Assembly: GCF_040807025.1 (NCBI RefSeq)
Contig: NC_090973.1
Coordinates: forward strand, 935,107-981,852
DNA length: 46,746 nt
Source: Struthio camelus
Lineage: Eukaryota
Direction of reading: 5' to 3'
Within the stretch, counting starts at the first letter, position 1, and the number at the start of each line of letters is the position of its first letter. The notes under the pieces are model-generated. The model ran no database searches, had not been told where the DNA came from, and was given only the letters and a program-made list of their open reading frames with translations. Positions 1,320 through 44,289 of this stretch are shown here, piece by piece. The position numbers and the translations under genes were made by a program.

Positions 1320-4300
1320 GGCGTCTGGGGGGGGCCTCTATAGGGCGCTTTATGGGCCTACGGGGGCTCTGTGGGGTTGTGGGGTTCCTATAGGGCTTTT
1401 TAAGGCTGTGTGAGACCCTATAGGGGGTTCTTTAGGGCTTCGGGACGTCTATAGGGCTCTGCGGTTCCTATAGAGTCCTGCATGGCTCTGACAGGCTTTA
1501 CAATAAATTATATAGATAATATGATGTATCTATAGGACGTTGTGGTATCTATAGGACTCTATAAGGCCATGGGGGGGGTATATAAGGGACTCTCCAGAGT
1601 TAAGGAGCCTCTATAGGGCTCTGGGCTTCCTTCAGGGCTATGGGGAGTGTTGAAGGGTTCTTTAGGGCTGGGGGGGGGGCTATAGGATGTGGGGGGGGTA
1701 TGGAGGGACTCTATAGGGCTGCGGGGTCCCTATAGGATCCATGGGGAGGTGGGGGGGGTCTCTGTGGGGCTGAGGGGGCTCTATAGGGCTCCGGGGACCC
1801 TCTAGGGCTGTAAGGGGTGTTGAGGGGCTCTCTAGGGGTGTGTGGGGGGGGTCCCTATAGGGCCATAAGGAGTTTGAGGGGCTCTATAGGGTTGGGGGGG
1901 GTCCATAGGGCTACGGTGGGTGTTAGGGAGCTCTATAGGGCCGTAAGTACTTCTACAGGGCTGTGGGGGTTGGGGGGGCTTTATGAAACTATGGTGTTCC
2001 TATAGGGCCTGGCAGTATGTTGAGGTCTTTATAGGGAAGCGAGGTGCCTAGCGGGGTTTCTATAGGGTTATGGGGATGCTGGAGGGCTCTATAGAGCCTG
2101 GAAGAGGTGTTGGGGGGCTCTGTAGGGCTGTGGGGCCCCTCCAGGGCTGGAGGGGGTGTTGGGGGCCCTCTAGGGCTGTGGGGGCTCTATAGAGTCGTGG
2201 GGGGTGCTGGGGGGGGGTCCTGTAGGGCTGTGGGGCCCGTATAGGGCCAGGGGGTGTCAGAGGGCTCTATAGGTTGTGGGGGGTGGGTGCTGGGGGGCTC
2301 TATAGGGTGCTGAGGGGCATCAGGGGCTCCTATAGGGTTGTAGGGGGTCTGGGGGGCTCTATAGGGCACTAAGGGGGGTGGGGGACTCCTATAGGGCTGG
2401 TAGGGGGTGTGGGGGCCTCTCTAGGGTGCTAAGGTGTATTGGGGACTCCTATAGGGCTGGGGGGGCTGGGGGGGTTCTATAGGGTGCTAAGGGGTGTGGG
2501 GGACTCCTATAGGGGCTGGGGGGGCTCTATGGGGTGCTAAGGGGTGTGGGAGACTCCTATAGGGCTGGGGGGGCTCTATAGGGCACTAAGGGGTGTGGGA
2601 GACTCCTATAGGGCTGGGGGGGCTCTATAGGGCACTAAGGGGTGTGGGAGACTCCCATAGGGCTGGGGGGGCTCTATGGGGCACTAAGGGGTCTGGGAGA
2701 CTCCTATAGGGCTGGGGGAGTCTCTAGGGTGCTAAGGGGTCTGGGGGACTCCTATAGGGCTGGGGGGTCTCTAGGGTGCTAAGGGGTCTGGGGGGCTCCT
2801 ATAGGGCTCCTAGGGGGGCTGGGGGACTCCTATAGGGCTGGGGGGGTCTCTAGGGTGCTAAGAGGTCTGGGGGGCTCCTATAGGGCTCCTAGGGGGGCTG
2901 GGGGACTCCTATAGGGCTGGGGGGGTCTCTAGGGTGCTAAGGGGTCTGGGGGGGCTCCTATAGGGCTCCTAGGGGGGCTGGGGGACTCCTATAGGGCTGG
3001 GGGGGTCTCTAGGGGGCTAAAGGGTCTGGGGGGCTCCTATAGGGCTCCTAGGGGGGCTGGGGGACTCCTATAGGGCTGGGGGGGTCTCTAGGGTGCTAAG
3101 GGGTCTGGGGGGCTCCTATAGGGCTCCTAGGGGGGCTGGGGGACTCCTATAGGGCTGGGGGGGTCTCTAGGGTGCTAAGGGGTCTGGGGGACTCCTATAG
3201 GGGCTGGGGGGGCTCTATGGGGTGCTAAGGGGTGTGGGAGACTCCTATAGGGCTGGGGGGGCTCTATAGGGCACTAAGGGGTGTGGGAGACTCCCATAGG
3301 GCTGGGGGGGCTCTATGGGGCACTAAGGGGTGTGGGGGACTCCTATAGGGCTGGGGGAGTCTCTAGGGTGCTAAGGGGTCTGGGGGACTCCTATAGGGCT
3401 GGGGGGGCTCTATGGGGCACTAAGGGGTGTGGGGGACTCCTATAGGGCTGGGGGGGTCTCTAGGGTGCTAAGGGGTCTGGGGGACTCCTATAGGGCTCCT
3501 AGGGGGGCTGGGGACTCCTATAGGGCTGGGGGGGTCTCTAGGGTGCTAAGGGGTCTGGGGGACTCCTATAGGGCTGGGGGGTCTCTAGGGTGCTAAGGGC
3601 TCTGGGGGGCTCCTATAGGGCTCCTAAGGGGTCTGGGGGCTCCTATAGGGCTGGGGGGGTCTCTAGGGGGCTAAAGGGTCTGGGGGGCTCCTATAGGGCT
3701 CCTAGGGGGGCTGGGGACTCCTATAGAGCTGGGGGAGTCTCTAGGGTGCTAAGGGGTCTGGGGGACTCCTATAGGGCTGGGGGGTCTCTAGGGTGCTAAG
3801 GGCTCTGGGGGGCTCCTATAGGGCTCCTAGGGGGGCTGGGGGACTCCTATAGGGCTGGGGGGGTCTCTAGGGGGCTAAAGGGTCTGGGGGGCTCCTATAG
3901 GGCTCCTAGGGGGGCTGGGGACTCCTATAGGGCTGGGGGAGTCTCTAGGGTGCTAAGGGGTCTGGGGGGCTCCTATAGGGCTCCTAGGGGGGCTGGGGGA
4001 CTCCTATAGGGCTGGGGGGGCTCTAGGGTGCTAAGGGGACTGGGGGGCTCCTATAGGGCTCCTAGGGGGGCTGGGGGCTCCTATAGGGCTGGGGGGTCTC
4101 TAGGGTGCTAAGGGGTCTGGGGGGCTCCTATAGGGCTCCTAGGGGGGCTGGGGGACTCCTATAGGGCTGGGGGGGTCTCTAGGGTGCTAAGAGGTCTGGG
4201 GGGCTCCTATAGGGCTCCTAGGGGGGCTGGGGGACTCCTATAGGGCTGGGGGGGTCTCTAGGGTGCTAAGGGGTCTGGGGGGGCTCCTATAGGGCTCCTA

Positions 4301-5790
4301 GGGGGGCTGGGGGACTCCTATAGGGCTGGGGGGGTCTCTAGGGTCCTAAGGGGTCTGGGGGGCTCCTATAGGGCTCCTAGGGGGGCTGGGGGACTCCTAT
4401 AGGGCTGGGGGGGTCTCTAGGGTGCTAAGGGGTCTGGGGGGGCTCCTATAGGGCTCCTAGGGGGGCTGGGGGCTCCTATAGGGCTGGGGGGTCTCTAGGG
4501 TGCTAAGGGGTCTGGGGGGGCTCCTATAGGGCTCCTAGGGGGGCTGGGGGCTCCTATAGGGCTGGGGGGGTCTCTAGGGTGCTAAGGGGTCTGGGGGGCT
4601 CCTACAGGGCTCCTAGGGGGGCTGGGGGCTCCTATAGGGCTGGGGGGGTCTCTAGGGTCCTAAGGGCTCTGGGGGGCTCCTATAGGGCTCCTAGGGGGGC
4701 TGGGGGACTCCTATAGGGCTGGGGGGGTCTCTAGGGTGCTAAGGGGTCTGGGGGGCTCCTATAGGGCTCCTAGGGGGGCTGGGGGCTCCTATAGGGCTGG
4801 GGGGATCTCTAGGGTCCTAAGGGCTCTGGGGGGCTCCTATAGGGCTCCTAGGGGGGCTGGGGGACTCCTATAGGGCTGGGGGGGTCTCTAGGGTGCTAAG
4901 GGGTCTGGGGGGCTCCTATAGGGCTCCTAGGGGGGCTGGGGGACTCCTATAGGGCTGGGGGGGTCTCTAGGGTGCTAAGGGGTCTGGGGGGCTCCTATAG
5001 GGCTCCTAGGGGGGCTGGGGGCTCCTATAGGGCTGGGGGGGTCTCTAGGGTGCTAAGGGGTCTGGGGGGCTCCTATAGGGCTCCTGGGGGGGCTGGGGGC
5101 TCCTATAGGGCTGGGGGGGTCTCTAGGGTGCTAAGGGGTCTGGGGGACTTCTACAGGGCTCCTAGGGGGGCTGGGGGCTCCTATAGGGCTGGGGGGGTCT
5201 CTAGGGTGCTAAGGGCTCTGGGGGGCTCCTATAGGGCTCCTAGGGGGGCTGGGGGCTCCTATAGGGCTGGGGGGGTCTCTAGGGTGCTAAGGGGTCTGGG
5301 GGGCTCCTATAGGGCTCCTAGGGGGGCTGGGGGCTCCTATAGGGCTGGGGGGGTCTCTAGGGTGCTAAGGGGTCTGGGGGGCTCCTATAGGGCTCCTAGG
5401 GGGGCTGGGGGACTCCTATAGGGCTGGGGGGGTCTCTAGGGTGCTAAGGGGTCTGGGGGACTCCTATAGGGCTCCTAGGGGGGCTGGGGGCTCCTATAGG
5501 GCTGGGGGGTCTCTAGGGTGCTAAGGGGTCTGGGGGGCTCCTATAGGGCTCCTAGGGGGGCTGGGGCCTCCTATAGGGCTGGGGGGTCTCTAGGGTGCTA
5601 AGGGGTCTGGGGGGCTCCTATAGGGCTCCTAGGGGGGCTGGGGGACTCCTATAGGGCTGGGGGGGGTCTCTAGGGTGCTAAGGGGTCTGGGGGACTCCTA
5701 TAGGGCTGGGGGGGTCTCTAGGGTGCTAAGGGGTCTGGGGGGCTCCTATAGGGCTCCTAGGGGGGCTGGGGGGGTCTCCGAGGGGCTCCA
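1320..5790 (+). repeat. CTATAGGG-core minisatellite in MVP intron 1. It is degenerate at 1320-2400. At 2400-5790 it is a homogeneous unit of about 80 bp with about 40 copies.
   Basis: Unit: gggggactcctatagggctgggggggtctctagggtgctaaggggtctggggggctcctatagggctcctaggggggct, repeated nearly identically. Confidence 0.9.
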
Positions 5791-5897: not shown

Positions 5898-6093
5898 GGT
5901 GGCCTTCGCCCCCGTGCGCATGGTGACGGTGCCGGCGCGGCACTACTGCACGGTGCTGCACCCCGTGGCCCGGGCGCCCGGCGGGGAGGCCCTGCTGGAC
6001 GGCACCGGGCAGGTCCGGCTGCGGCACGGCGACCTGGAGGTGCGCCTGGCCCAGGAGCCCTTCCCTCTCTACCCCGGCGAGCAGCTCCAGCAG
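5898..6093 (+). CDS. MVP: MVP coding exon 2 (R)[65 protein letters not shown]
   Basis: Acceptor accccag|G at 5897/5898 completes the Arg codon split from exon 1. Strong identity to the human MVP exon (FAPMRMVTVPPRHYCTV...[25 protein letters not shown]). Donor cag|GTACCT at 6093/6094. Confidence 0.9.
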
Positions 6094-6099
6094 GTACCT

Positions 6100-9000
6100 A
6101 TGGCCCCTATAGACCCCCTATAGACCCTATAGCCCTCCCCGCGACCCCTCCGTCCCCGGTCCGGCTGGGGCTCGGCGACCTGGAGGTGCGCCTGGCCCAG
6201 GAGCCCTTCCCTCTCTACCCCGGCGAGCAGCTCCAGCAGGTACCTATGGCCCCTATACACCCCCTATAGCCCCTATAGACCCTATAGCCCTCCCCGCGAC
6301 CCCTCCGTCCCCGGTCCGGCTGCGGCACGGCGACCTGGAGGTGCGCCTGGCCCAGGAGCCCTTCCCTCTCTCCCCCGGCGAGCAGCTCCAGCAGGTACCT
6401 ATGGCCCCTATACACCCCCTATAGCCCCTATAGCCCTCCCCGCGACCCCTCCGTCCCCGGTCCGGCTGCGGCACGGCGACCTGGAGGTGCGCCTGGCCCA
6501 GGAGCCCTTCCCGCTCTACCCCGGCGAGCAGCTCCAGCAGGTACCTATGGCCCCTATACACCCCCTATAGACCCCCTATAGCCCCTATAGCCCTCCCCGC
6601 GACCCCTCCGTCCCCGGTCCGGCTGCGGCACGGCGACCTGGAGGTGCGCCTGGCCCAGGAGCCCTTCCCGCTCTACCCCGGCGAGCAGCTCCAGCAGGTA
6701 CCTATAGCCCCTATACACCCCCTATAGCCCCTATAGACCCTATAGCCCTCCCCGCGACCCCTCCGTCCCCGGTCCGGCTGCGGCACGGCGACCTGGAGGT
6801 GCGCCTGGCCCAGGAGCCCTTCCCTCTCTACCCCGGCGAGCAGCTCCAGCAGGTACCTACGGCCCCTATAGACCCCCTATAGCCCCTATAGCCCTCCCCG
6901 CGACCCCTCCGTCCCCGGTCCGGCTGCGGCTCGGCGACCTGGAGGTGCGCCTGGCCCAGGAGCCCTTCCCGCTCTACCCCGGCGAGCAGCTCCAGCAGGT
7001 ACCTATGGCCCCTATACACCCCCTATAGCCCCTATAGCCCCTATAGCCCTCCCCGCGACCCCTCCGTCCCCGGTCCGGCTGCGGCACGGCGACCTGGAGG
7101 TGCGCCTGGCCCAGGAGCCCTTCCCTCTCTCCCCCGGCGAGCAGCTCCAGCAGGTACCTATGGCCCCCATACACCCCCTATAGCCCCTATAGCCCCTATA
7201 GCCCCTATAGCCCTCCCCGCGACCCCTCCGTCCCCGGTCCAGCTGCGGCTCGGCGACCTGGAGGTGCGCCTGGCCCAGGAGCCCTTCCCTCTCTCCCCCG
7301 GCGAGCAGCTCCAGCAGGTACCTACGGCCCCTATACACCCCCTATAGCCCCTATAGCCCCTATAGCCCTCCCCGCGACCCCTCCGTCCCCGGTCCGGCTG
7401 CGGCTCGGCGACCTGGAGGTGCGCCTGGCCCAGGAGCCCTTCCCTCTCTACCCCGGCGAGCAGCTCCAGCAGGTACCTATGGCCCCTATACACCCCCTAT
7501 AGCCCCTATAGACCCTATAGCCCTCCCCGCGACCCCTCCGTCCCCGGTCCGGCTGCGGCTCGGCGACCTGGAGGTGCGCCTGGCCCAGGAGCCCTTCCCT
7601 CTCTACCCCGGCGAGCAGCTCCAGCAGGTACCTATGGCCCCTATAGACCCCCTATAGCCCCTATAGCCCCTATAGCCCTCCCCGCGACCCCTCCGTCCCC
7701 GGTCCGGCTGGGGCTCGGCGACCTGGAGGTGCGCCTGGCCCAGGAGCCCTTCCCTCTCTCCCCCGGCGAGCAGCTCCAGCAGGTACCTATGGCCCCTATA
7801 CACCCCCTATAGCCCCTATAGACCCCCTATAGTCCCTATAGCCCTCCCCGCGACCCCTCCGTCCCCGGTCCGGCTGCGGCTCGGCGACCTGGAGGTGCGC
7901 CTGGCCCAGGAGCCCTTCCCTCTCTACCCCGGTGAGCAGCTCCAGCAGGTACCTACGGCCCCTATACACCCCCTATAGCCCCTATAGCCCCTATAGCCCT
8001 CCCCGCGACCCCTCCGTCCCCGGTCCGGCTGGGGCTTGGCGACCTGGAGGTGCGCCTGGCCCAGGAGCCCTTCCCTCTCTACCCCGGCGAGCAGCTCCAG
8101 CAGGTACCTACGGCCCCTATACACCCCCTATAGCCCCTATAGCCCCTATAGACCCTATAGCCCTCCCCGCGACCCCTCCGTCCCCGGTCCGGCTGCGGCT
8201 CGGCGACCTGGAGGTGCGCCTGGCCCAGGAGCCCTTCCCTCTCTACCCCGGCGAGCAGCTCCAGCAGGTACCTATGGCCCCTATACACCCCCTATAGCCC
8301 CTATAGCCCCTATAGACCCTATAGCCCTCCCCGCGACCCCTCCGTCCCCGGTCCGGCTGCGGCACGGCGACCTGGAGGTGCGCCTGGCCCAGGAGCCCTT
8401 CCCTCTCTACCCCGGCGAGCAGCTCCAGCAGGTACCTATGGCCCCTATACACCCCCTATAGCCCCTATAGCCCCTATAGCCCTCCCCGCGACCCCTCCGT
8501 CCCCGGTCCGGCTGCGGCACGGCGACCTGGAGGTGCGCCTGGCCCAGGAGCCCTTCCCTCTCTCCCCCGGCGAGCAGCTCCAGCAGGTACCTACGGCCCC
8601 TATAGACCCCCTATAGCCCCTATAGCCCCTATAGCCCCTATAGCCCTCCCCGCGACCCCTCCGTCCCCGGTCCGGCTGCGGCACGGCGACCTGGAGGTGC
8701 GCCTGGCCCAGGAGCCCTTCCCTCTCTACCCCGGCGAGCAGCTCCAGCAGGTACCTATGGCCCCTATACACCCCCTATAGCCCCTATAGCCCCTATAGCC
8801 CCTATAGCCCTCCCCGCGACCCCTCCGTCCCCGGTCCGGCTGGGGCTTGGCGACCTGGAGGTGCGCCTGGCCCAGGAGCCCTTCCCTCTCTCCCCCGGCG
8901 AGCAGCTCCAGCAGGTACCTATGGCCCCTATACACCCCCTATAGCCCCTATACACCCCCTATAGCCCCTATAGCCCTCCCCGCGACCCCTCCGTCCCCGG

Positions 9001-10075
9001 TCCGGCTGGGGCTTGGCGACCTGGAGGTGTGCCTGGCCCAGGAGCCCTTCCCTCTCTCCCCCGGCGAGCAGCTCCAGCAGGTACCTACGGCCCCTATACA
9101 CCCCCGATAGCCCCTATAGACCCCCTATAGCCCCTATAGTCCCTATAGCCCTCCCCACGACCCCTCCGTCCCCGGTCCGGCTGCGGCTCGGCGACCTGGA
9201 GGTGCGCCTGGCCCAGGAGCCCTTCCCTCTCTCCCCCGGCGAGCAGCTCCAGCAGGTACCTATGGCCCCTATACACCCCCTATAGCCCCTATAGCCCTCC
9301 CCGTGACCCCTCCGTCCCCGGTCCGGCTGCGGCTTGGCGACCTGGAGGTGCGCCTGGCCCAGGAGCCCTTCCCTCTCTCCCCCGGCGAGCAGCTCCAGCA
9401 GGTACCTACGGCCCCTATAGACCCCCTATAGCCCCTATAGACCCCCTATAGCCCCCTATAGCCCCTATAGCCCTCCCCGCGACCCCTCCGTCCCCGGTCC
9501 GGCTGCGGCTCGGCGACCTGGAGGTGCGCCTGGCCCAGGAGCCCTTCCCTCTCTCCCCCGGCGAGCAGCTCCAGCAGGTACCTACGGCCCCTATAGACCC
9601 CCTATAGCCCCTATAGACCCCCTATAGCCCCTATAGCCCCTATAGCCCTCCCCGCGACCCCTCCGTCCCCGGTCCAGCTGCGGCACGGCGACCTGGAGGT
9701 GCGCCTGGCCCAGGAGCCCTTCCCTCTCTACCCCGGCGAGCAGCTCCAGCAGGTACCTATGGCCCCTATACACCCCCTATAGCCCCTATAGCCCTCCCCG
9801 CGACCCCTCCGTCCCCGGTCCGGCTGCGGCACGGCGACCTGGAGGTGCGCCTGGCCCAGGAGCCCTTCCCGCTCTACCCCGGCGAGCAGCTCCAGCAGGT
9901 ACCTACGGCCCCTATAGACCCCCTATAGACCTATAGACCCCCTATAGCCCTCCCCGCGACCCCTCCGTCCCCGGTCCGGCTGCGGCACGGCGACCTGGAG
10001 GTGCGCCTGGCCCAGGAGCCCTTCCCTCTCTCCCCCGGCGAGCAGCTCCAGCAGGTACCTACGGCCCCTATACAT
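6100..10075 (+). repeat. About 25 tandem copies (150-165 bp each) of the 3' 81 nt of MVP exon 2 plus the splice donor CAG|GTACCT plus (cccctatag)n
   Basis: ggcgacctggaggtgcgcctggcccaggagcccttccc...gagcagctccagcaggtacct recurs at about 6174, 6318, 6469, 6626, 6783, 6927, 7085, 7249, 7400, 7561, 7712, 7878, 8037, 8197, 8358, 8518, 8679, 8841, 9006, 9184, 9342, 9510, 9676, 9828 and 9982. Confidence 0.95.
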
Positions 10076-11939: not shown

Positions 11940-13010
11940 CCCCCCGCCGCCCCTGGGACCCTCCGGGGACCCCCCGGCACCCATGGGACCCCCTCAACAC
12001 CCATGGCACCATCCAACACCCATGGGACCTTCATCCTGTCCCCAGCACCCATGGGACCCCCCAACACCCATGGGACCCCCTCAACACCCATGGCACCACC
12101 CAACACCTATGAGACCTTTATCCTGTCCCTGGTGCCCCTGGGAACCCCCCAACACCCCTGGGACCCCCCCAACACCCATGGCACCACCCAACACCCATGG
12201 GACCCCCTCAACACCCATGGCACCACCCAACGCCCATGAGACCTTCATCCTGTCCCTGGCACCCCTGGGACCCCCCAGCACCCATGGCACCACCCAACAC
12301 CCATGGAACCTTCATCCTGTTCCCGGCACCCCGGGACCCCCCAGCACCCATGGGACCCCCTCAACACCCACGGCACCACCCAACACCCATGGGACCTTCA
12401 TCCTGTCCCCAGCACTCCTGGGACCCCCCAACACCCATGGCACCATCCAACACCCATGGGACCTTTATCCTGTCCCCAGCACCCCTGGGACCCCCCAGTG
12501 CCCATGGGACCCCCAGCACCCATGGGACCCCCCCCAACACCCATGGCACCACCCAACACCCATGAGACCTTCATCCTGTTCCCGGCACCCCGGGACCTCC
12601 CAGCACCCATGGGACCCCCTCAACACCCATGGCACCACCCAACACCCATGGGACCTTTGTCCTGTCCCCGGCACTCCGGGACCCCCCCCTTCCCCACCCA
12701 ACACCCCTGGGACTCTCATCCTCCCCCCAGCACACTTGGGACCCCCCTCAGTGCCCCCCAGCACCGTTGGGACCTCATGGCACCCCCCCCAGCAGCCATG
12801 GGACCCCCATCCTTCCTCCAGCACCCCTAAGACCCCCTTGTCCCCTCCCTCCAGCACCCAAAAGACCCCAATGCCCACAAAGCCCCCAATACCCATAAGA
12901 CCTCCAGGCCTCCAGCACCCATAAGATCTCCCCCAGCACCCCTGGGGCCCCCCCGGCACCCCTAGGACCCCCCCCAGCACCCCTGGGGCCCCCACACCGA
13001 GCGCCCCGTG
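11940..13010 (+). repeat. Minisatellite (24-60-bp units: cacccatgggaccccc / cacccatggcaccacc) filling MVP intron 4
   Basis: Dense recurrence of ccatgggacc and ccatggcacc motifs. Confidence 0.8.
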
Positions 13011-13020
13011 CCCCCACCAG

Positions 13021-13115
13021 GCGAAGAGTGGCTGGTGAAGCGGGTGGGCGCCTACCTGCCCGGCGTCTACGAAGAGGTGCTCGACGTGGTGGACGCCTTC
13101 GTCCTCACTGAGAAG
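13021..13115 (+). CDS. MVP: MVP coding exon 5 (G)[31 protein letters not shown]
   Basis: Acceptor cccccaccag|GC. Matches human [31 protein letters not shown]. Donor gaag|GTACGG, phase 0. Confidence 0.9.
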
Positions 13116-13197
13116 GTACGGCCGGCACCCACGGGTGACGCCTCGCCGGGCCGGTGTCACCCGCCCGCCCGCCCTCACCCGTCCCTGTCACCCGCAG

Positions 13198-13434
13198 AAA
13201 GCCCTGCACCTTCGGGCCACGAGGACCTTCCGGGACGCCCAGGGCATGGTGCGGCGCACGGGCGAGGAGTGGCTGGTGACGCAGGCGCAGAGCGAGGCCT
13301 ACATCCCCGACGTCTTTGAGGAGGTGGTGGCCGAGGTGGCCGTCACCACCCTGGGGCCCCGGCAGTACTGCGTCGTCCTCGACCCCGTGGGGCCTGACGG
13401 CAAGCCCCAGCTGGGCCAGCAGCGCGTCGTCAAG
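13198..13434 (+). CDS. MVP: MVP coding exon 6 [79 protein letters not shown]
   Basis: Acceptor cacccgcag|AAA. The 79-codon exon is colinear with human [27 protein letters not shown]...[19 protein letters not shown]. Donor caag|GTGGGT. Confidence 0.9.
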
Positions 13435-13444
13435 GTGGGTGCCG

Positions 13445-14500
13445 CCCGCCCGAGGGTGGCCCTCCTGGGTCCACCCTGGGGGATGGACCACCGAGGAGGT
13501 GGCCGCGGGTGGCCTTGAGGGACCTCAATGGGCTCCTGAGGGGCTCAGGGTGACGCTGAGGCATGCTAAGGTGGCCCTGAGGGGGCTGAGGTGGCCTTCA
13601 AGGTTTTCAAGAGCCCTGAGGGGGGGTCAGGGTGGCCCTGAGGGACACTAAGGTGGCCCCAAGAGGTTCAGGGTGGCACCAGAGGCCCTCAATGGACCCC
13701 TAAGGTGGCCCTGAGGGGCTCAGGGTGGCACTGAGAGAAACTGAGGTGGCCCTGAGGGAGCTCAGATGGCCTTGAATGTCCTCAATCTCTAAGGTGCCCC
13801 TGAGGGGGTCGGGGTGGCCCCGAGAGATGCTAAGGGGGGGTCACAAGGGACCCCACCATGCCAGTGATGTGTTCCCATGGTGTCCCCATGTCCGCACCAA
13901 GCCATTGACATGTGCCTGTGGCATCCCCATGTCCCCGCCATGCTGGTGGCACGTCCCCATGGTGTCCCCATGTCCCCGTCAAGCCACTGATGTGTCCCCA
14001 CGGCATTCCCATGACTCCACCATGCTGGTGGCACGTCCACATGGTGTCCCCGTGTCCCCGTCAAGCCATTGACGTGTCCCCACGGCATTCTCATGACTCC
14101 ACCATGCTGGTGGCACATCCCTATAGTGTCCCCATGTCCCTGTCAAGCCACTGATGTGTCCCCACGGCATGTCCATGACTCCACCATGCTGGTGGCACGT
14201 CCCCATGGTGTCTCCATATCCCCCCCCAAGTCACTGATGTGTCCCCATGGCATTCCCATGACTCCACCATGCTGGTGGCACATCCCCATGGTGTCCCCGT
14301 GTCCCCGTCAAGCCACTGACGTGTCCCCACGGCATTCTCATGACTCCACCATGCTGGTGGCATGTCCCCATGGAGTCCCCATGTCCCTGTCAAGCCATTG
14401 ACATGTCCCCACGGCATCCCCATGACTCCACCATGCTGGTGGCACGTCTCCATGGAGTCCCCGCTGTGCCAGTGACGTGTCCCCACCGTGTCCCCTCGTC
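13445..14500 (+). repeat. MVP intron 6: 20-40-bp ggtggccctgagggggctca repeats (13445-13840), then about 4.5 copies of a 138-bp unit (13850-14500) derived from the exon-7 acceptor region
   Basis: The unit gtccccgtcaagccactgacgtgtccccacggcattc..accatgctggtggcacgtccccatggtgtcccc is mirrored at the true acceptor gccagtgacgtgtccccaccgtgtcccctcgtccccag|. Confidence 0.8.
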
Positions 14501-27789: not shown

Positions 27790-28560
27790 GGGCCGCCGGG
27801 GGGGGGGCGGAGCCGGCGCAGGTGCCGCGGGGGATGGTGGGAGCGCGCAGGCGCGGTAGGGGCGGTGGGCGGGGGGAGTCCGCGGCGGGGAGCGGCGGCC
27901 GCGCAAGCGCAGTAGGGGAGGGCACCGGAGCGCGCAGGCGCAGTAGCCCGAGGGAGGGATTAAACGCGCAGGCGCAGTAGCCCGAGGGAGAGGCGGGAGC
28001 GCGCAGGCGCAGTAGCCTGAGGTGGGGGGGACAGCGCAGGCGCAGTAGCCCGAGGGAGGGGCGGGAGAGCGCAGGCGCTGTAGCCCGGGGGGCCGCGCAG
28101 GCGCGATTACTCGAGGGAGGGGCGGGCAGGCGCAGTAGCTCGAGAAAGGGGAGAATGCGCATGCGCTGTAGCGGGGGGCTGCGCAGGCGCAGTAGCCTGG
28201 GGAAGGGGGACGGCGCAGGCGCGGTTCAGTGGGGGGGGTGTCGCAAAGGACGCGCAGGCGCAGTACCGCAGGAGGGAGAAGGGGGGAGTGCGCAGGCGCA
28301 GTAGTATCAGTGAGGGGGTGTGGGGGGGGACGGGGGCGCGCAGGCGCAGTAGCCCCGGGGGAGAGGGGAGGAGCGCGCAGGCGCGGTTCGGCGGGAGAGG
28401 GGCGGTGTCGCAGGGGACGCGCAGGCGCAATAGCCGCGGGAAGCGGGGGGGGGGGACAGGGAGCGCGCAGGCGCGGTAGGTCGGGCCGGGGGGGGGGGGG
28501 ACGCGGCGCGCAGGCGCAGTCGGCGCGAAGGGGGCCGGGGGCGCGGCTGACGGCGGCTCC
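27790..28560 (+). repeat. About 60-bp gcgcaggcgcagtagcccgagggaggggcgggag repeat in MVP intron 14, sequence-related to the start of exon 15
   Basis: gcgcaggcgcag recurs about every 60 bp. Exon 15 begins ..gagcgcgcgcaggcgcaggagctg. Confidence 0.8.
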
Positions 28561-28575: not shown

Positions 28576-28764
28576 GAGGCGGAGCTGGCGCGGCTGGAGC
28601 GCGCGCAGGCGCAGGAGCTGCGGGTGCAGCGGGCGCGGGCGGAGGCGGAGGCGGCGCATGCGCAGGCCATGGCCGAGGTGGAGGGCGCGCGCGTGCGCGA
28701 CGTGGCCACCGCCCTCGGCCCCGACGTCATCCGCGACATCGCCCGCGCCGGGCCCGAGCTCCAG
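28576..28764 (+). CDS. MVP: MVP coding exon 15 EAELARLERAQAQELRVQRARAEAEAAHAQAMAEVEGARVRDVATALGPDVIRDIARAGPELQ
   Basis: Acceptor ccgtcgcgcag|GAG. Colinear with human [63 protein letters not shown]. Donor ccag|GTGGGC. Confidence 0.9.
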
Positions 28765-29255: not shown

Positions 29256-29393
29256 GTGAAGCTGCTGCAGGGCCTGGGGCTGCAGTCGACGCTCATCACC
29301 GACGGCGCCGCCCCCCTCAACCTCTTCGCCACCGCCCGGGGGCTGCTGGGGCTGGTCCCGCCCCCCGGCCCCGCCCCCGGCCCCGCCCCCTGA
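29256..29393 (+). CDS. MVP: MVP terminal coding exon [45 protein letters not shown] (TGA at 29391-29393)
   Basis: Acceptor tgtcccgcag|GTG. Matches human [33 protein letters not shown]. The stop is followed 22 nt later by AATAAA. Confidence 0.9.
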
Positions 29394-29414: not shown

Positions 29415-29420
29415 AATAAA
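29415..29420 (+). terminator. MVP: MVP polyadenylation signal AATAAA (3' UTR only about 40-50 nt)
   Basis: Canonical AATAAA lies 22 nt after the TGA. A GT-rich stretch follows at 29440-29465. Confidence 0.75.
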
Positions 29421-29424
29421 GGCG

Positions 29425-30010
29425 GCCGTGACGTCATGGCGGTGGTGTCCTAGCTTTGTGGGGGGGGGGGGGAAGGGGCTGTGATGTCACCACGCTGGGG
29501 ACACGGCAGCTGTGATGTCATAGTCCCGGGGGGCGGGGCTTGTGCACTCAGTGGGTGGGCTGGCAGGGCTGTGATGTCACGGGGGGGGTGGGCGGGCTGC
29601 TGGCTATGATGTCACAGCTCCGGGGGCCCGAGAGGGTTGGGGCGGGACGCTCGGGTGTGACATCATTGGGCTGGGGGGGTGGGGCTGTGATGTCACAGAG
29701 CGGAGCGATGTCAGGCTGGGGAGTGATGTCGTCAGGCCCAGGTGTGACGTCATCGGGCCGGGGCGTGGCGTCGTGGGGCCGGGGTGTGACGTCATCGGGC
29801 TAGGTGTGACGTCATCCGGTCCGGGCGCGATGCCATCGAGGTGCAGCAGCGTGCCGTGGGGCTGGGGCGTGACATCATCGGGCCGAGTGTGACATCAGTG
29901 GGGCCAGGTGTGATGTCATCGAGCCAGAGCGTGAGCTCATGGCGCCTGGGCATGACGTTATTGGGCCCGGATGTGACCTAGTCGGGCCGGGCGTGATGTC
30001 ACGGGGCCGA
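29425..30010. promoter_or_regulatory. Tandem array of about 22 units of a 22-bp repeat GGGYGTGAYGTCAYCGGGCC carrying CRE palindromes (TGACGTCA) or their CpG-decayed variants
   Basis: Perfect TGACGTCA at 29429-29436, 29745-29752, 29787-29794 and 29807-29814. The other units carry TGATGTCA, TGACATCA or TGACCTCA. Confidence 0.7.
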
Positions 30011-30229
30011 GGTGTGACCTCATGGGGCGGGGGGGGGGGCGGCGCGGGGGCCCCGGACGCCTGGGTCCCCAAGCAGGAGGCGGGGCCGGAGCTCCCGAAG
30101 GCTCTTTTAATACTGAGGTTATTGCTGCTGCGCGGGGGCACCCCGGGGGCCCAGGCGTCCCCGGGGCCGGGGGGCTGCTACGGTCCTGGGGACCCCCGGG
30201 GACACCCGAGGGGGCTCGTGGGGACCCGG

Positions 30230-31990
30230 GGACGGGGACGGGGCTGCTACTGTGCTGGGGGCACCCGAGGGTGGGTGCTGGGGGATGGTCACCACCTGCA
30301 GGACGCCCTAAGGTGGGTCCCAGGCACCCTGGGGGCACCCAAGGGTGGTCCTGGGGGATGGTCACCACCTGCAGGACGCCCTAAGGTGGGTCCCAGGCAC
30401 CTTGGGGGCACCCAAGGGTGGTCCTGGGGGATGGTCACCACCTGCAGGACGTCCCAAGGTGGGTCCCAGGCACCCTGGGGGCACCCAAGGGTGGGTGCTG
30501 GGGGATGGTCACCACCTGCAGGATGCCCCAAGGTGGGTGCCGGGCACCCTGGGGGCACCCAAGGGTGGGTGCTGGGGGATGGTCACCACCTGCAGGACGC
30601 CCCAAGGTGGCTCCCGGGCACCCTGGGGGCACCCGAGGGGGCTCCTGGGGGATGGTCACCACCTGCAGGACACCCTAAGCTGGGTCCCAGGCACCCTGGG
30701 GGCACCCGAGGGGGCTCCTGGGGGATGGTCACCACCTGCAGGACGCCCCAAGGTGGGTCCCGGGCACCCTGGGGGCACCCGAGGGGGCTCCTGGGGGATG
30801 GTCACCACCTGCAGGACACCCTAAGCTGGGTCCCAGGCACCCTGGGGGCACCCGAGGGGGCTCCTGGGGGATGGTCACCACCTGCAGGACGCCCCAAGGT
30901 GGGTCCCGGGCACCCTGGGGGCACCCGAGGGGGCTCCTGGGGGATGGTCACCACCTGCAGGACACCCTAAGCTGGGTCCCAGGCACCCTGGGGGCACCCA
31001 AGGGGGCTCCTGGGGGATGGTCACCACCTGCAGGACGCCCCAAGGTGGGTGCCGGGCACCCTGGGGGCACCCAAGGGTGGGTGCTGGGGGATGGTCACCA
31101 CCTGCAGGACGCCCCAAGGTGGGTCCTGGGCACCTTGGGGGCACCCGAGGGGGCTCCTGGGGGATGGTCACCACCTGCAGGACGCCCCAAGGTGGGTGCC
31201 GGGCACCTTGGGGGCACCCGAGGGGGCTCCTGGGGGATGGTCACCACCTGCAGGACGCCCTAAGGTGGGTCCCGGGCACCTTGGGGGCACCCAAGGGTGG
31301 GTGCTGGGGGATGGTCACCACCTGCAGGACGCCCCAAGGTGGCTCCCGTGCACCCTGGGGGCACCCGAGGGGGCTCCTGGGGGATGGTCACCACCTGCAG
31401 GACGCCCCAAGGTGGGTCCCGGGCACCTTGGGGGCACCCAAGGGGGCTCCTGGGGGATGGTCACCACCTGCAGGACACCCTAAGGTGGGTCCCGGGCACC
31501 TTGGGGGCACCCAAGGGTGGTCCCGGCAGACCCTGGTGACCCCCAGGAGCATTTTTCGGGGATGCCCCTGACTCTGGGAACACCCAAGGATGCTCCCAGT
31601 AGATGGTCACCACCCTTGTGACAGCTATGGGTGCTCTTAGGGGACACTGGAGACACCCTTGGGTGCTCCTAGGAGATGGCCACCACCCTGGAGACACTCT
31701 ACAGTGGTTCCTGGGCACCCTGGGGACACCCAAGAGTACTCTTAGGAGACAGCCACCACTCTGGTGACACCCATGGGTGCTCCGGATGGACCTTGAAGAC
31801 ACCCTTGGGTGCTTCTAGATGACCACCTCCCAGGTGACACCCATGGGTGCTCCGGAGGGACCCTGGAGACACCCAAAGGTGCTTCTAGATGAGCATCACC
31901 CAGGTGACACCCAAGGGTGCTCTTAGAAGCCAGTCACTGCCCTGAGGACATCCCATGGTGGGTCCTGGGCACCCTGGGGACACCCAAGGG
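30230..31990. repeat. Intergenic 73-bp tandem repeat, about 17 homogeneous copies (30230-31500) then diverged copies. Each unit contains the E-box CACCTGCAGG.
   Basis: Unit: ggatggtcaccacctgcaggacgccccaaggtgggtcccgggcaccctgggggcacccgagggggctcctggg. Confidence 0.9.
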
Positions 31991-32125: not shown

Positions 32126-32386
32126 TCAGGGGGGCGCCGGGGGCCGGAAGAGGCGCCAGGCGCCGCGGCAGATGAGGCCGAACCAGTAGAGCTGGGGGGC
32201 GAGGAGGGCGGCGGCGGCGGCGTTGTAGGCGGCCGGCAGCGCCGCCGGCACCCGCAGCAGCGGCAGCCCCGCGTGGCGCCCGTAGGCCCAGTACAGGTAG
32301 GGGAACAGCAGCACCCGGCACCCGAAGAAGGTCACCAGCATGGCCAGGCCGTTGAGCTTGTGCAGCGCCGTGTGCTGCCGCTTGTA
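32126..32386 (-). CDS. TLCD3B: TLCD3B terminal coding exon [86 protein letters not shown] (stop = plus TCA at 32126-32128)
   Basis: Minus-strand acceptor ccccggcag|TAC. Matches human [82 protein letters not shown]. Confidence 0.85.
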   Translation of the reverse strand, partial: [86 protein letters not shown]

Positions 32387-44100: not shown

Positions 44101-44143
44101 CCCCCCGGGACCCCAATCCCCCCCGTCCCCCCCCCCCGCGCGG

Positions 44144-44266
44144 TGACTCAGCGCTCGGCGGCGCGGCCCCTTTAAGCGCCCCCCTCGCCCCTCCCGCCGC
44201 TTCCTCTGACGTCACAGCCCCCCCCCCGCACCGCACGCGCGCGCCGCAGCCTCGGCGCGAGACCAG
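44144..44266 (+). promoter_or_regulatory. Candidate promoter and non-coding first exon. It has AP-1 TGACTCA (44144-44150), TTTAAG (44171-44176) and CRE TGACGTCA (44207-44214). The exon would end at donor accag|GTGGGG (44266/44267).
   Basis: A unique, non-repetitive GC-rich island between two satellite arrays, with canonical motifs and a donor. No ORF is present. Confidence 0.3.
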
Positions 44267-44289
44267 GTGGGGCCCGGGGGGGGGGGCGG

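Follow-up and report, generated by a model that had tools for sequence, protein, structure and literature searches.

The 46,746-nt stretch of the Struthio camelus genome analysed here (NC_090973.1, positions 935,107 to 981,852; hereafter the window, with positions counted from its first nucleotide) carries two converging genes, MVP on the plus strand and TLCD3B (FAM57B) on the minus strand. The spacer of approximately 690 bp between the poly(A) signal AATAAA of MVP (29415) and the poly(A) signal ATTAAA of TLCD3B (minus strand, 30106-30111) is filled by an array of octamers resembling the cAMP response element (CRE), TGACGTCA. The features of the spacer and of the two gene ends are:

29256 to 29393, plus strand: last coding exon of MVP, ending in PAP* with the stop codon TGA at 29391-29393, assigned from the sequence and from homology to other birds.
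29415 to 29420, plus strand: MVP poly(A) signal AATAAA, with an equivalent AATAAA in the five other bird loci compared on this flank (L007, L008, L010, L011 and L012).
29429 to 29436, no strand assigned: first of the perfect TGACGTCA copies, presumably within the zone of MVP cleavage and followed by the GU-rich GGTGGTGTCC..TTTGTG.
29460 to 29472, plus strand: run of 13 G residues, then AAGGGG; G-rich on the MVP sense strand.
29482 to 29700, no strand assigned: left cluster of six cores, five TGATGTCA and one TGACATCA, with the shared flank GCTGTGATGTCA.
29706 to 30035, no strand assigned: right array of 16 units of 21 bp by register, consensus GGTGTGACGTCATCGGGCCGG, with perfect CREs at 29745, 29787 and 29807.
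30029 to 30039, plus strand: run of 11 G residues that closes the array.
30066 to 30111, minus strand: TLCD3B poly(A) signal ATTAAA (plus-strand TTTAAT at 30106-30111) and its conserved downstream block GCCTCCTGCTTGGGG.
32126 to 32386, minus strand: last coding exon and stop codon of TLCD3B/FAM57B, with PF03798 in homologues.

The convergent arrangement of the two genes had been recognized in an original prediction made from the DNA sequence alone, and is borne out by the exons, the poly(A) signals and homology. The last MVP exon shares 87% nucleotide identity with L011 and 80-85% amino acid identity with L007-L010 (tblastn/blastn), homologues of the exon upstream of it match the Pfam MVP_shoulder domain, and the best MVP exon match is a JGI sequence with 96% identity. 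Homologues of the TLCD3B exon in birds are named FAM57B or ceramide synthase-like, and, across those bird sequences whose alignment covers most of the last exon, identity is 77-87%, with the best matches being to passerines (87% at the protein level) and to goose (90% by tblastn). The 3′ untranslated region (3′UTR) of TLCD3B is approximately 2 kb long (32125 down to ~30112) and is full of 73/220-bp arrays identified with Tandem Repeats Finder (TRF), while the block GCCTCCTGCTTGGGG aligns to goose, jay and manakin sequences downstream of their TLCD3B poly(A) signals. The array also begins, as predicted, in the presumed MVP cleavage region, with its first core starting 8 nt past the AATAAA (9 nt in the prediction). 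A scan of the whole window against Rfam returned no RNA family.

Twenty cores within two mismatches of the octamer can be counted in the spacer, and three more degenerate units, occupying gaps of 63 bp and 41 bp among these cores, bring the total of TGACGTCA-like cores to 23 over 29429-30022, where fewer than one would be expected by chance. Four of these are perfect (29429, 29745, 29787 and 29807) and seven units retain a central CG, so that the CRE octamer or its half-site TGACG is present; the fifth perfect copy in the window, at 44207, is unrelated. For perfect copies the expectation is 0.17 per whole window, and none of 100 shuffles attained five, while the degenerate form TGAYRTCA occurs 14 times within 29429-30001 against an expectation of 0.76 for the entire window. 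The array of CRE cores is real, although it was partly mis-described: the predicted number of about 22 copies is fair if the three degenerate units are included, and four perfect palindromes do lie at 29429-29436 and within 29745-29814, whereas the proposed unit of 22 bp is rejected by both the core spacing and TRF, which give 21 bp.

The two halves of the array differ in their architecture. TRF reports a period of 21 with 14.7 copies for 29723-30028, with matches of only 65% and a score of 128, and a minisatellite in the sense of head-to-tail units of 10-100 bp at a constant period is found in the right half only. The left half (29429-29700) holds seven cores with successive spacings of 53, 31, 59, 35, 51 and 30 bp and forms no regular array. 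Without its first core, it resolves into three pairs with a within-pair spacing of 30-35 bp (~31) and a recurrence of ~88 bp (81-94). The flank GCTGTGATGTCA is common to the five left-half TGATGTCA copies, and these probably therefore reflect one inherited change rather than five events. Left to right, the mismatches of the 23 units to the ideal 21-mer number 6, 6, 5, 6, 7, 3, 7, 10, 12, 0, 4, 2, 3, 8, 11, 3, 7, 3, 7, 5, 4, 5 and 3, with the best units (29745-29814) directly bordered by the worst (29706-29727 and 29828-29849). As such, the gradient of decay described in the original prediction is not supported by any trend in the per-unit counts. The right array folds better as single-stranded DNA than its shuffles do (z = -3.3) because its cores are self-complementary, which is compatible with slippage-prone DNA and proves nothing.

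At the central dinucleotide, ten of the 23 units have TG, seven CG, three CA, two CC and one GC. Changes of the deamination type thus affect 13 of the 46 central positions, while transitions are found at 10 of the 138 other core positions (six per unit), an enrichment at the central CpG (Fisher odds ratio: 5.0; p = 5e-4) which persists once the five left-hand GCTGTGATGTCA copies are collapsed to one event (odds ratio: 3.2; p = 0.02). The excess of TG and CA over other substitutions, whose absence had been named beforehand as one part of what would refute the prediction, is therefore present across the array, and the reading of most other copies as deamination products of the CRE palindrome is correct but ordinary, as it is expected for any vertebrate CpG. 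The same path is documented for CREs in general, in which TGATGTCA and TGACATCA most often take the place of the canonical site when species are compared (PMC1796609). The proposal of a formerly homogeneous array is, however, not supported, as amplification of the left half started from a copy that already carried TG and the two halves are differently built. The further claim that the cluster is partly methylated and decaying holds for the deamination-type excess, while methylation as its cause is weaker than stated, given an observed/expected (o/e) CpG ratio of 0.97 in the right half. The corresponding ratio is 0.53 in the left half, 0.78 for the array overall and 0.43 for the window, making the array value the highest among those window arrays that are not exon-derived; the neighbouring TLCD3B 3′UTR repeats, a 53-bp intron array and a 3.5-kb array of 78-bp units show ratios of 0.20, 0.15 and 0.00, respectively. 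The region 29425-30035 (611 bp; GC content: 68%; o/e: 0.78) has the composition of a CpG island (>200 bp, GC >50%, o/e >0.6) and adjoins a CpG-rich block beginning at ~27400.

The conservation of the array at the orthologous MVP flank was compared in five loci, namely a Colinus record (L007), two galliform-type Logan contigs (L008 and L012), a spliced transcript of another bird (L010) and, as the closest relative found, L011. All five have two cores 31-32 bp apart past the MVP AATAAA, and the spacing of this pair is that of the pairs in the left cluster of the window. The cores lie at +24 and +56 in L007, L008, L012 and L010, with TGATGTC(A/G) at the first site and TGATGTCA, GAGATGTCA or TGACATCA at the second, and at +43 and +74 in L011. 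The equivalent pair of the window lies at +67 and +98, with an extra perfect core at +14; this first core (29429) was aligned by MAFFT to GTGATGTC(A/G)T of the galliform-type loci, and the corresponding bases are absent in L011. The second site reads TGATGTCA in the galliform-type loci and TGACATCA in L010 and, since these are deamination products of opposite strands, the comparison points to TGACGTCA as the ancestral core at this site. In L011, five cores with at most one mismatch are dispersed over 660 bp (shuffles: 0.23), none of them intact, and TGTGATGTCGTCAG is found as it is at window position 29723. The two flanks align weakly by blastn (window 29466-29618 against L011 835-993; 63.6% identity; E = 2e-7). 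A regular 21-bp array is absent from this flank in L007, L008, L010, L011 and L012. A possible outgroup MVP 3′ end (L015) stops 57 nt past the stop codon and is uninformative.

The Colinus record is flagged UNVERIFIED_CONTAM and was used for its MVP 3′ flank only. It was rejected as an instance of the same MVP/TLCD3B pair, as its neighbouring TLC-domain gene lacks a match to the TLCD3B exon and its open reading frames resemble a true ceramide synthase. The possibility that L011 contains the TLCD3B poly(A) site was likewise dropped, the resemblance at its 3′ end being weak. In the galliform-type contigs, MVP lies in AT-normal, repeat-poor DNA and converges on another TLC-domain gene that is ceramide-synthase-like (L007 14023-18469); with TLCD3B lying next to other genes in goose and passerines, MVP seems to have changed its genomic neighbourhood among birds.

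Related cores are also found on the TLCD3B side. In the goose locus (L003), where the neighbour of TLCD3B is a kinesin and not MVP, five tandem cores with a 17-20-bp period (four TGATGTCA and one TGACGTCA) begin ~60 nt past the TLCD3B ATTAAA, and the flank CCCGATGAYGTCAC is common to the goose cores and the minus-strand reading of the window unit. A jaeger locus (L006) carries GTGTGACGTCACC directly after a G-rich block past the TLCD3B poly(A) signal, with sequence gaps hiding the remainder. TGAYRTCA is absent anywhere in the jay (L001) and manakin (L002) loci, where arrays of GAGTGACCCCT and CCCCAAAT units, respectively, occupy the same place past TLCD3B, with a GTGACC half-site at their start. 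The gene next to TLCD3B is a different one in these two birds and in manakin appears, from a reading of its C-terminus, to be RNF40. The flycatcher (L005) and pigeon (L004) loci also lack TGAYRTCA, with yet another repeat lying downstream of TLCD3B in pigeon. A G-run followed by AGGGG is found 45-60 nt past the TLCD3B poly(A) signal in goose (~13585-13602), jay (~3735-3755), manakin (~7617-7635) and jaeger (2151-2175); that of the window (29460-29480) follows the MVP signal.

The array is situated in a window in which 61 tandem repeat blocks make up 75.7% of the sequence (TRF; GC content: 69%), and it is among the lowest-scoring of these blocks. With about 76% of the window in tandem repeats, a non-functional origin is therefore the default for the array. 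Avian dot chromosomes, which are highly methylated in chicken (PMC9974502), undergo "sequence stuttering", an imperfect local tandem expansion of unique sequence that sometimes involves exon edges (PMC12954441). Its setting is GC-rich, repeat-dense euchromatin, and intergenic DNA is stated to be affected (PMC12954441, Genome Biol Evol 2026). Exon-derived arrays are present within the window itself. The first bases of the MVP exon at 28576-28764 (GAGCGCGCGCAGGCGCAGGAGCTG) gave rise to approximately 15 copies of GAGCGCGCAGGCGCAGTAGCC / GAGCGCGCAGGCGCAGTAGCCCGAGGG in the intron before it (27830-28540), and the region 5991-10074 consists of ~22 copies, at ~91% identity, of a 155-bp unit in which a small MVP exon, complete with its GT donor, is joined to a short CCCCTATAG-rich intron, an arrangement that reflects either whole-exon stuttering or an assembly issue. 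Both the GC-rich, repeat-saturated setting with exon-derived arrays and a local origin of the unit are thus found here, the latter because single pairs or cores occur at orthologous places in birds that lack the array. As in the published cases, an originally unique sequence has undergone imperfect local expansion in an extremely GC-rich, repeat-dense and gene-dense region, with exon stuttering in the same window. The array differs from them in being intergenic, between two poly(A) sites, where the published analysis dealt with introns, and in the greater divergence of its units (65% matches, as against an edit distance of <20% in the published example). A further defining property of stuttering is that array length varies widely among individuals.

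Other repeats of the window may be recorded here. The intronic copies at 27830-28540 create a CpG-island-like block (o/e: 1.07), and if all copies at 5991-10074 were spliced, MVP would acquire ~22 additional repeat segments. The 3.5-kb repeat block at 2250-5773 has zero CpG at a GC content of 66% and includes 25 copies of a 78-bp unit that share 96% identity. A GGGGCACCYTRRGG-like motif builds long TLCD3B 3′UTR arrays in the window (30255-31526), goose (12400-13480), jay (2000-3650) and manakin (6260-7530), and an array thus persists at an orthologous place in the TLCD3B 3′UTR across distant birds. Units of 20 bp (CCCCCGGTGACCTCACCTGCCC) within a 121/242-bp higher-order repeat occupy 1-1103 and end ~30 bp before the MVP start codon (1132). 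In reverse, the TGACCTCA core and CGGGG flank of this repeat match the 21-bp unit at 12 of 14 positions, the only such array in the window, but a match of this length is too short to call kinship. An 11-nt identity to the penultimate MVP exon (GACGTCATCCG, ~28723) is at chance level for the window size and was not used.

We consider it reasonably probable that the array is an intergenic minisatellite, formed by local tandem amplification of an older cluster of CRE-like motifs in a lineage-specific manner and subject to ordinary CpG decay. Judged from the bird comparison, the cores are older than the array, their copy number is lineage-specific, and where the cores were lost other local sequence has been amplified instead, all of which is in keeping with the local amplification of a pre-existing motif. 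As the comparison shows, the ancestral state comprised two TGAYGTCA octamers with a spacing of 31-32 bp shortly past the MVP poly(A) signal, together with one or a few TGAYGTCA octamers shortly past that of TLCD3B, with copy number increasing in some lineages only. In the lineage of the window, the sequence shows that the pair was triplicated to give the left half and that the 21-bp unit was amplified to 16 copies in the right half, so that the spacer became filled. Sequence stuttering on an avian microchromosome that is GC-rich and saturated with repeats would have driven this, whether by unequal exchange or by slippage during replication. In many copies the central CpG later changed to TG or CA, a pattern which is seen in the units and for which deamination of methylated CpG is the presumed cause, and one of the TG variants has itself undergone amplification. 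The array as such would need no function, and if there is a function it would reside in the old motifs, which most plausibly would contribute to the conserved poly(A) downstream region or serve as weak CREB/ATF sites. What sets this array apart is its identifiable and unusually persistent CRE-like seed between converging poly(A) sites.

Several observations weigh against so neutral a history. The right half is old by its unit identity (65%), yet retains a CpG o/e ratio of 0.97 where the neighbouring arrays show 0-0.2, which hints at protection from methylation or at renewal. The non-CpG core positions of the right half have a majority fraction of 85%, as opposed to 68% for the flanks, a weak contrast in that the 16 units are few and several flank positions are kept equally well. 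Furthermore, in many lineages of birds both poly(A) flanks have retained cores, which neutrality alone does not predict, even where MVP has another neighbour (L007) and where TLCD3B is not adjacent to MVP (goose).

These observations lend some weight to explanations in which the cores are put to use. It is unlikely, though worth weighing, that CREB/ATF proteins bind the array as a working site cluster, which would serve as an enhancer or separate the genes as a chromatin boundary, stay partly unmethylated and have its strength tuned by array size. Such a cluster would account for the four perfect CREs and for the 13 TG/CA variants, of which the TG form (TGATGTCA) is reported to be a lower-affinity yet functional CRE (PMC1796609), for the CpG o/e ratio (0.78 overall, 0.97 in the right half) with CpG-island composition where the neighbouring arrays have none, and for the recurrence of cores at this position in several bird lineages; the 21-bp period, corresponding to two helical turns, would moreover place the sites on one side of the helix. 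Sixteen of the 23 cores, however, lack the CpG required for strong CREB binding, L011 is without an intact core, passerines have replaced the cores with unrelated arrays and the galliform-type loci have no array. CREs act mainly in the ~150 bp that precede a start site (PMC1796609), and the array does not lie in such a position: no start-site features were seen near it, between the plus-strand AATAAA at 29415 and the minus-strand ATTAAA at 30106-30111. The one promoter-like CRE of the window (44207) is, by comparison, single and intact.

A contribution to 3′-end formation, in which the array supplies the RNA with a GU-rich downstream element or, with the G-runs, forms a pause zone or DNA-bound roadblock, and so aids termination by RNA polymerase II and prevents collision in the 690-bp spacer, we likewise regard as unlikely. 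The array spans exactly the interval between the two poly(A) signals, and the first core pair lies ~25-105 nt from the MVP AATAAA in six loci whose farther flanks no longer align, with intervening sequence that is GU/G-rich, and the pair lies inside this zone directly past the MVP cleavage region. The G-run and AGGGG found past the TLCD3B signal in four birds, and past the MVP signal here, resemble the MAZ-type G5AG5 element, and we infer a possible pausing role for the block at 29460-29472. The cDNA L010 extends ~310 nt beyond the AATAAA, so that the zone is transcribed in at least one bird. Nevertheless, a downstream element needs one copy and not 23, and this explanation would cover the conservation of the seed but not the copy number; two cores suffice in the galliform-type loci and none in passerines, and we know of no CRE-type terminator. 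The first 60-100 nt past a poly(A) signal would, moreover, be expected to be conserved whatever the octamer does, and in the six loci, where GU/G-rich sequence past the cleavage region is aligned, the octamers are inseparable from this surrounding sequence. A more far-reaching proposal, which we consider improbable, is that the octamers are an old, selectively maintained ATF/CREB-type mark of the shared MVP/TLCD3B 3′ boundary, which is bound by bZIP proteins, keeps the spacer open and poorly methylated, serves as a terminator or boundary and is perhaps prone to recombination, with the same activity driving re-expansion in the window, L011 and goose. An origin of the array as an artefact of assembly or by chance clustering is extremely improbable: although the GC-rich repeats of avian microchromosomes pose difficulties for assembly (PMC12954441), its units are not identical (65% matches) and so do not represent a collapsed or inflated perfect repeat, the observed counts were never reached by shuffles, and independent assemblies of other birds hold related cores at the same two positions.

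Parallels to the array can be drawn from several known systems. With the canonical CRE and its variants it shares the octamer, the frequent occurrence of TGATGTCA and TGACATCA, the absence of TGATATCA and the alternation between canonical, TG and CA forms at orthologous sites of different species (PMC1796609). Typical CREs are single or few in number and are found in an unmethylated CpG island no more than ~150 bp upstream of the transcription start, whereas the 23 copies considered here lie between gene 3′ ends. The 21-bp Tax-responsive repeats of human T-cell leukemia virus type 1 (HTLV-1) and bovine leukemia virus (BLV) and the 19-bp immediate-early repeat of human cytomegalovirus (HCMV) carry a CRE or CRE-like core in GC-rich flanks and are repeated so as to multiply bZIP binding. 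Their 19-21-bp units with a CRE core are similar to that of the array in design only, with no sequence relationship expected, and unlike the array they comprise three to five copies inside a promoter or long terminal repeat upstream of the start site. MAZ-type G5AG5 elements reportedly act in pausing and termination between closely spaced genes (work that is ascribed to Ashfield et al. in 1994 and to Yonaha and Proudfoot in 1999 and 2000). The apparent likeness to these, and to VEZF1-type elements, lies in A-interrupted G-runs tens of nucleotides past poly(A) signals in a very short spacer, and would concern the G-runs that bracket the array rather than the CRE units. Finally, the M26/CRE meiotic recombination hotspot of fission yeast depends on ATGACGT bound by Atf1-Pcr1, and this heptamer is present in the minus-strand reading of the unit (ATGACGTCAC), which we regard as a lead only. 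Recombination in birds is reported to be concentrated at CpG-island-like gene ends, and ATF/CREB sites are not known to act as hotspots in vertebrates.

Outside birds, metagenomes were scanned for three GTGAYRTCA cores at a 20-22-bp period, with no control pattern and hence no claim of enrichment. Such arrays are carried by at least 120 environmental, apparently non-avian contigs (L016-L135), with spacers unrelated to those of the window, and among these listed matches 54 have the CpG form TGACGTCA as their dominant core, with 13 perfect copies in L048. CRE-core minisatellites are thus not rare in nature and appear to be a recurrent type. Within the window, the remaining perfect TGACGTCA at 44207 is single, intact and promoter-like in its surroundings (44140-44270), which include an AP-1 site TGACTCA (44145), TTTAAG, CpG-rich flanks and a donor-like AGGTGGGG at ~44266. 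This setting probably represents a promoter, belonging to a gene on the plus strand that lies upstream of TLCD3B and that might, as a guess from human gene order, be ALDOA.

In itself the array matters little, being one more minisatellite in a type of chromosome that is full of repeats, with a decay that is textbook. It is, however, a clear case of stuttering in intergenic DNA for which other birds reveal the seed, and as such supports the model of local origin. The seed is unusual, with CRE-like octamers lying just past two converging poly(A) sites in several lineages, in an array far less CpG-depleted than its neighbours. Were it found to be unmethylated and occupied, it would allow the action of a transcription-factor array at gene ends to be tested in a highly compact part of the genome.

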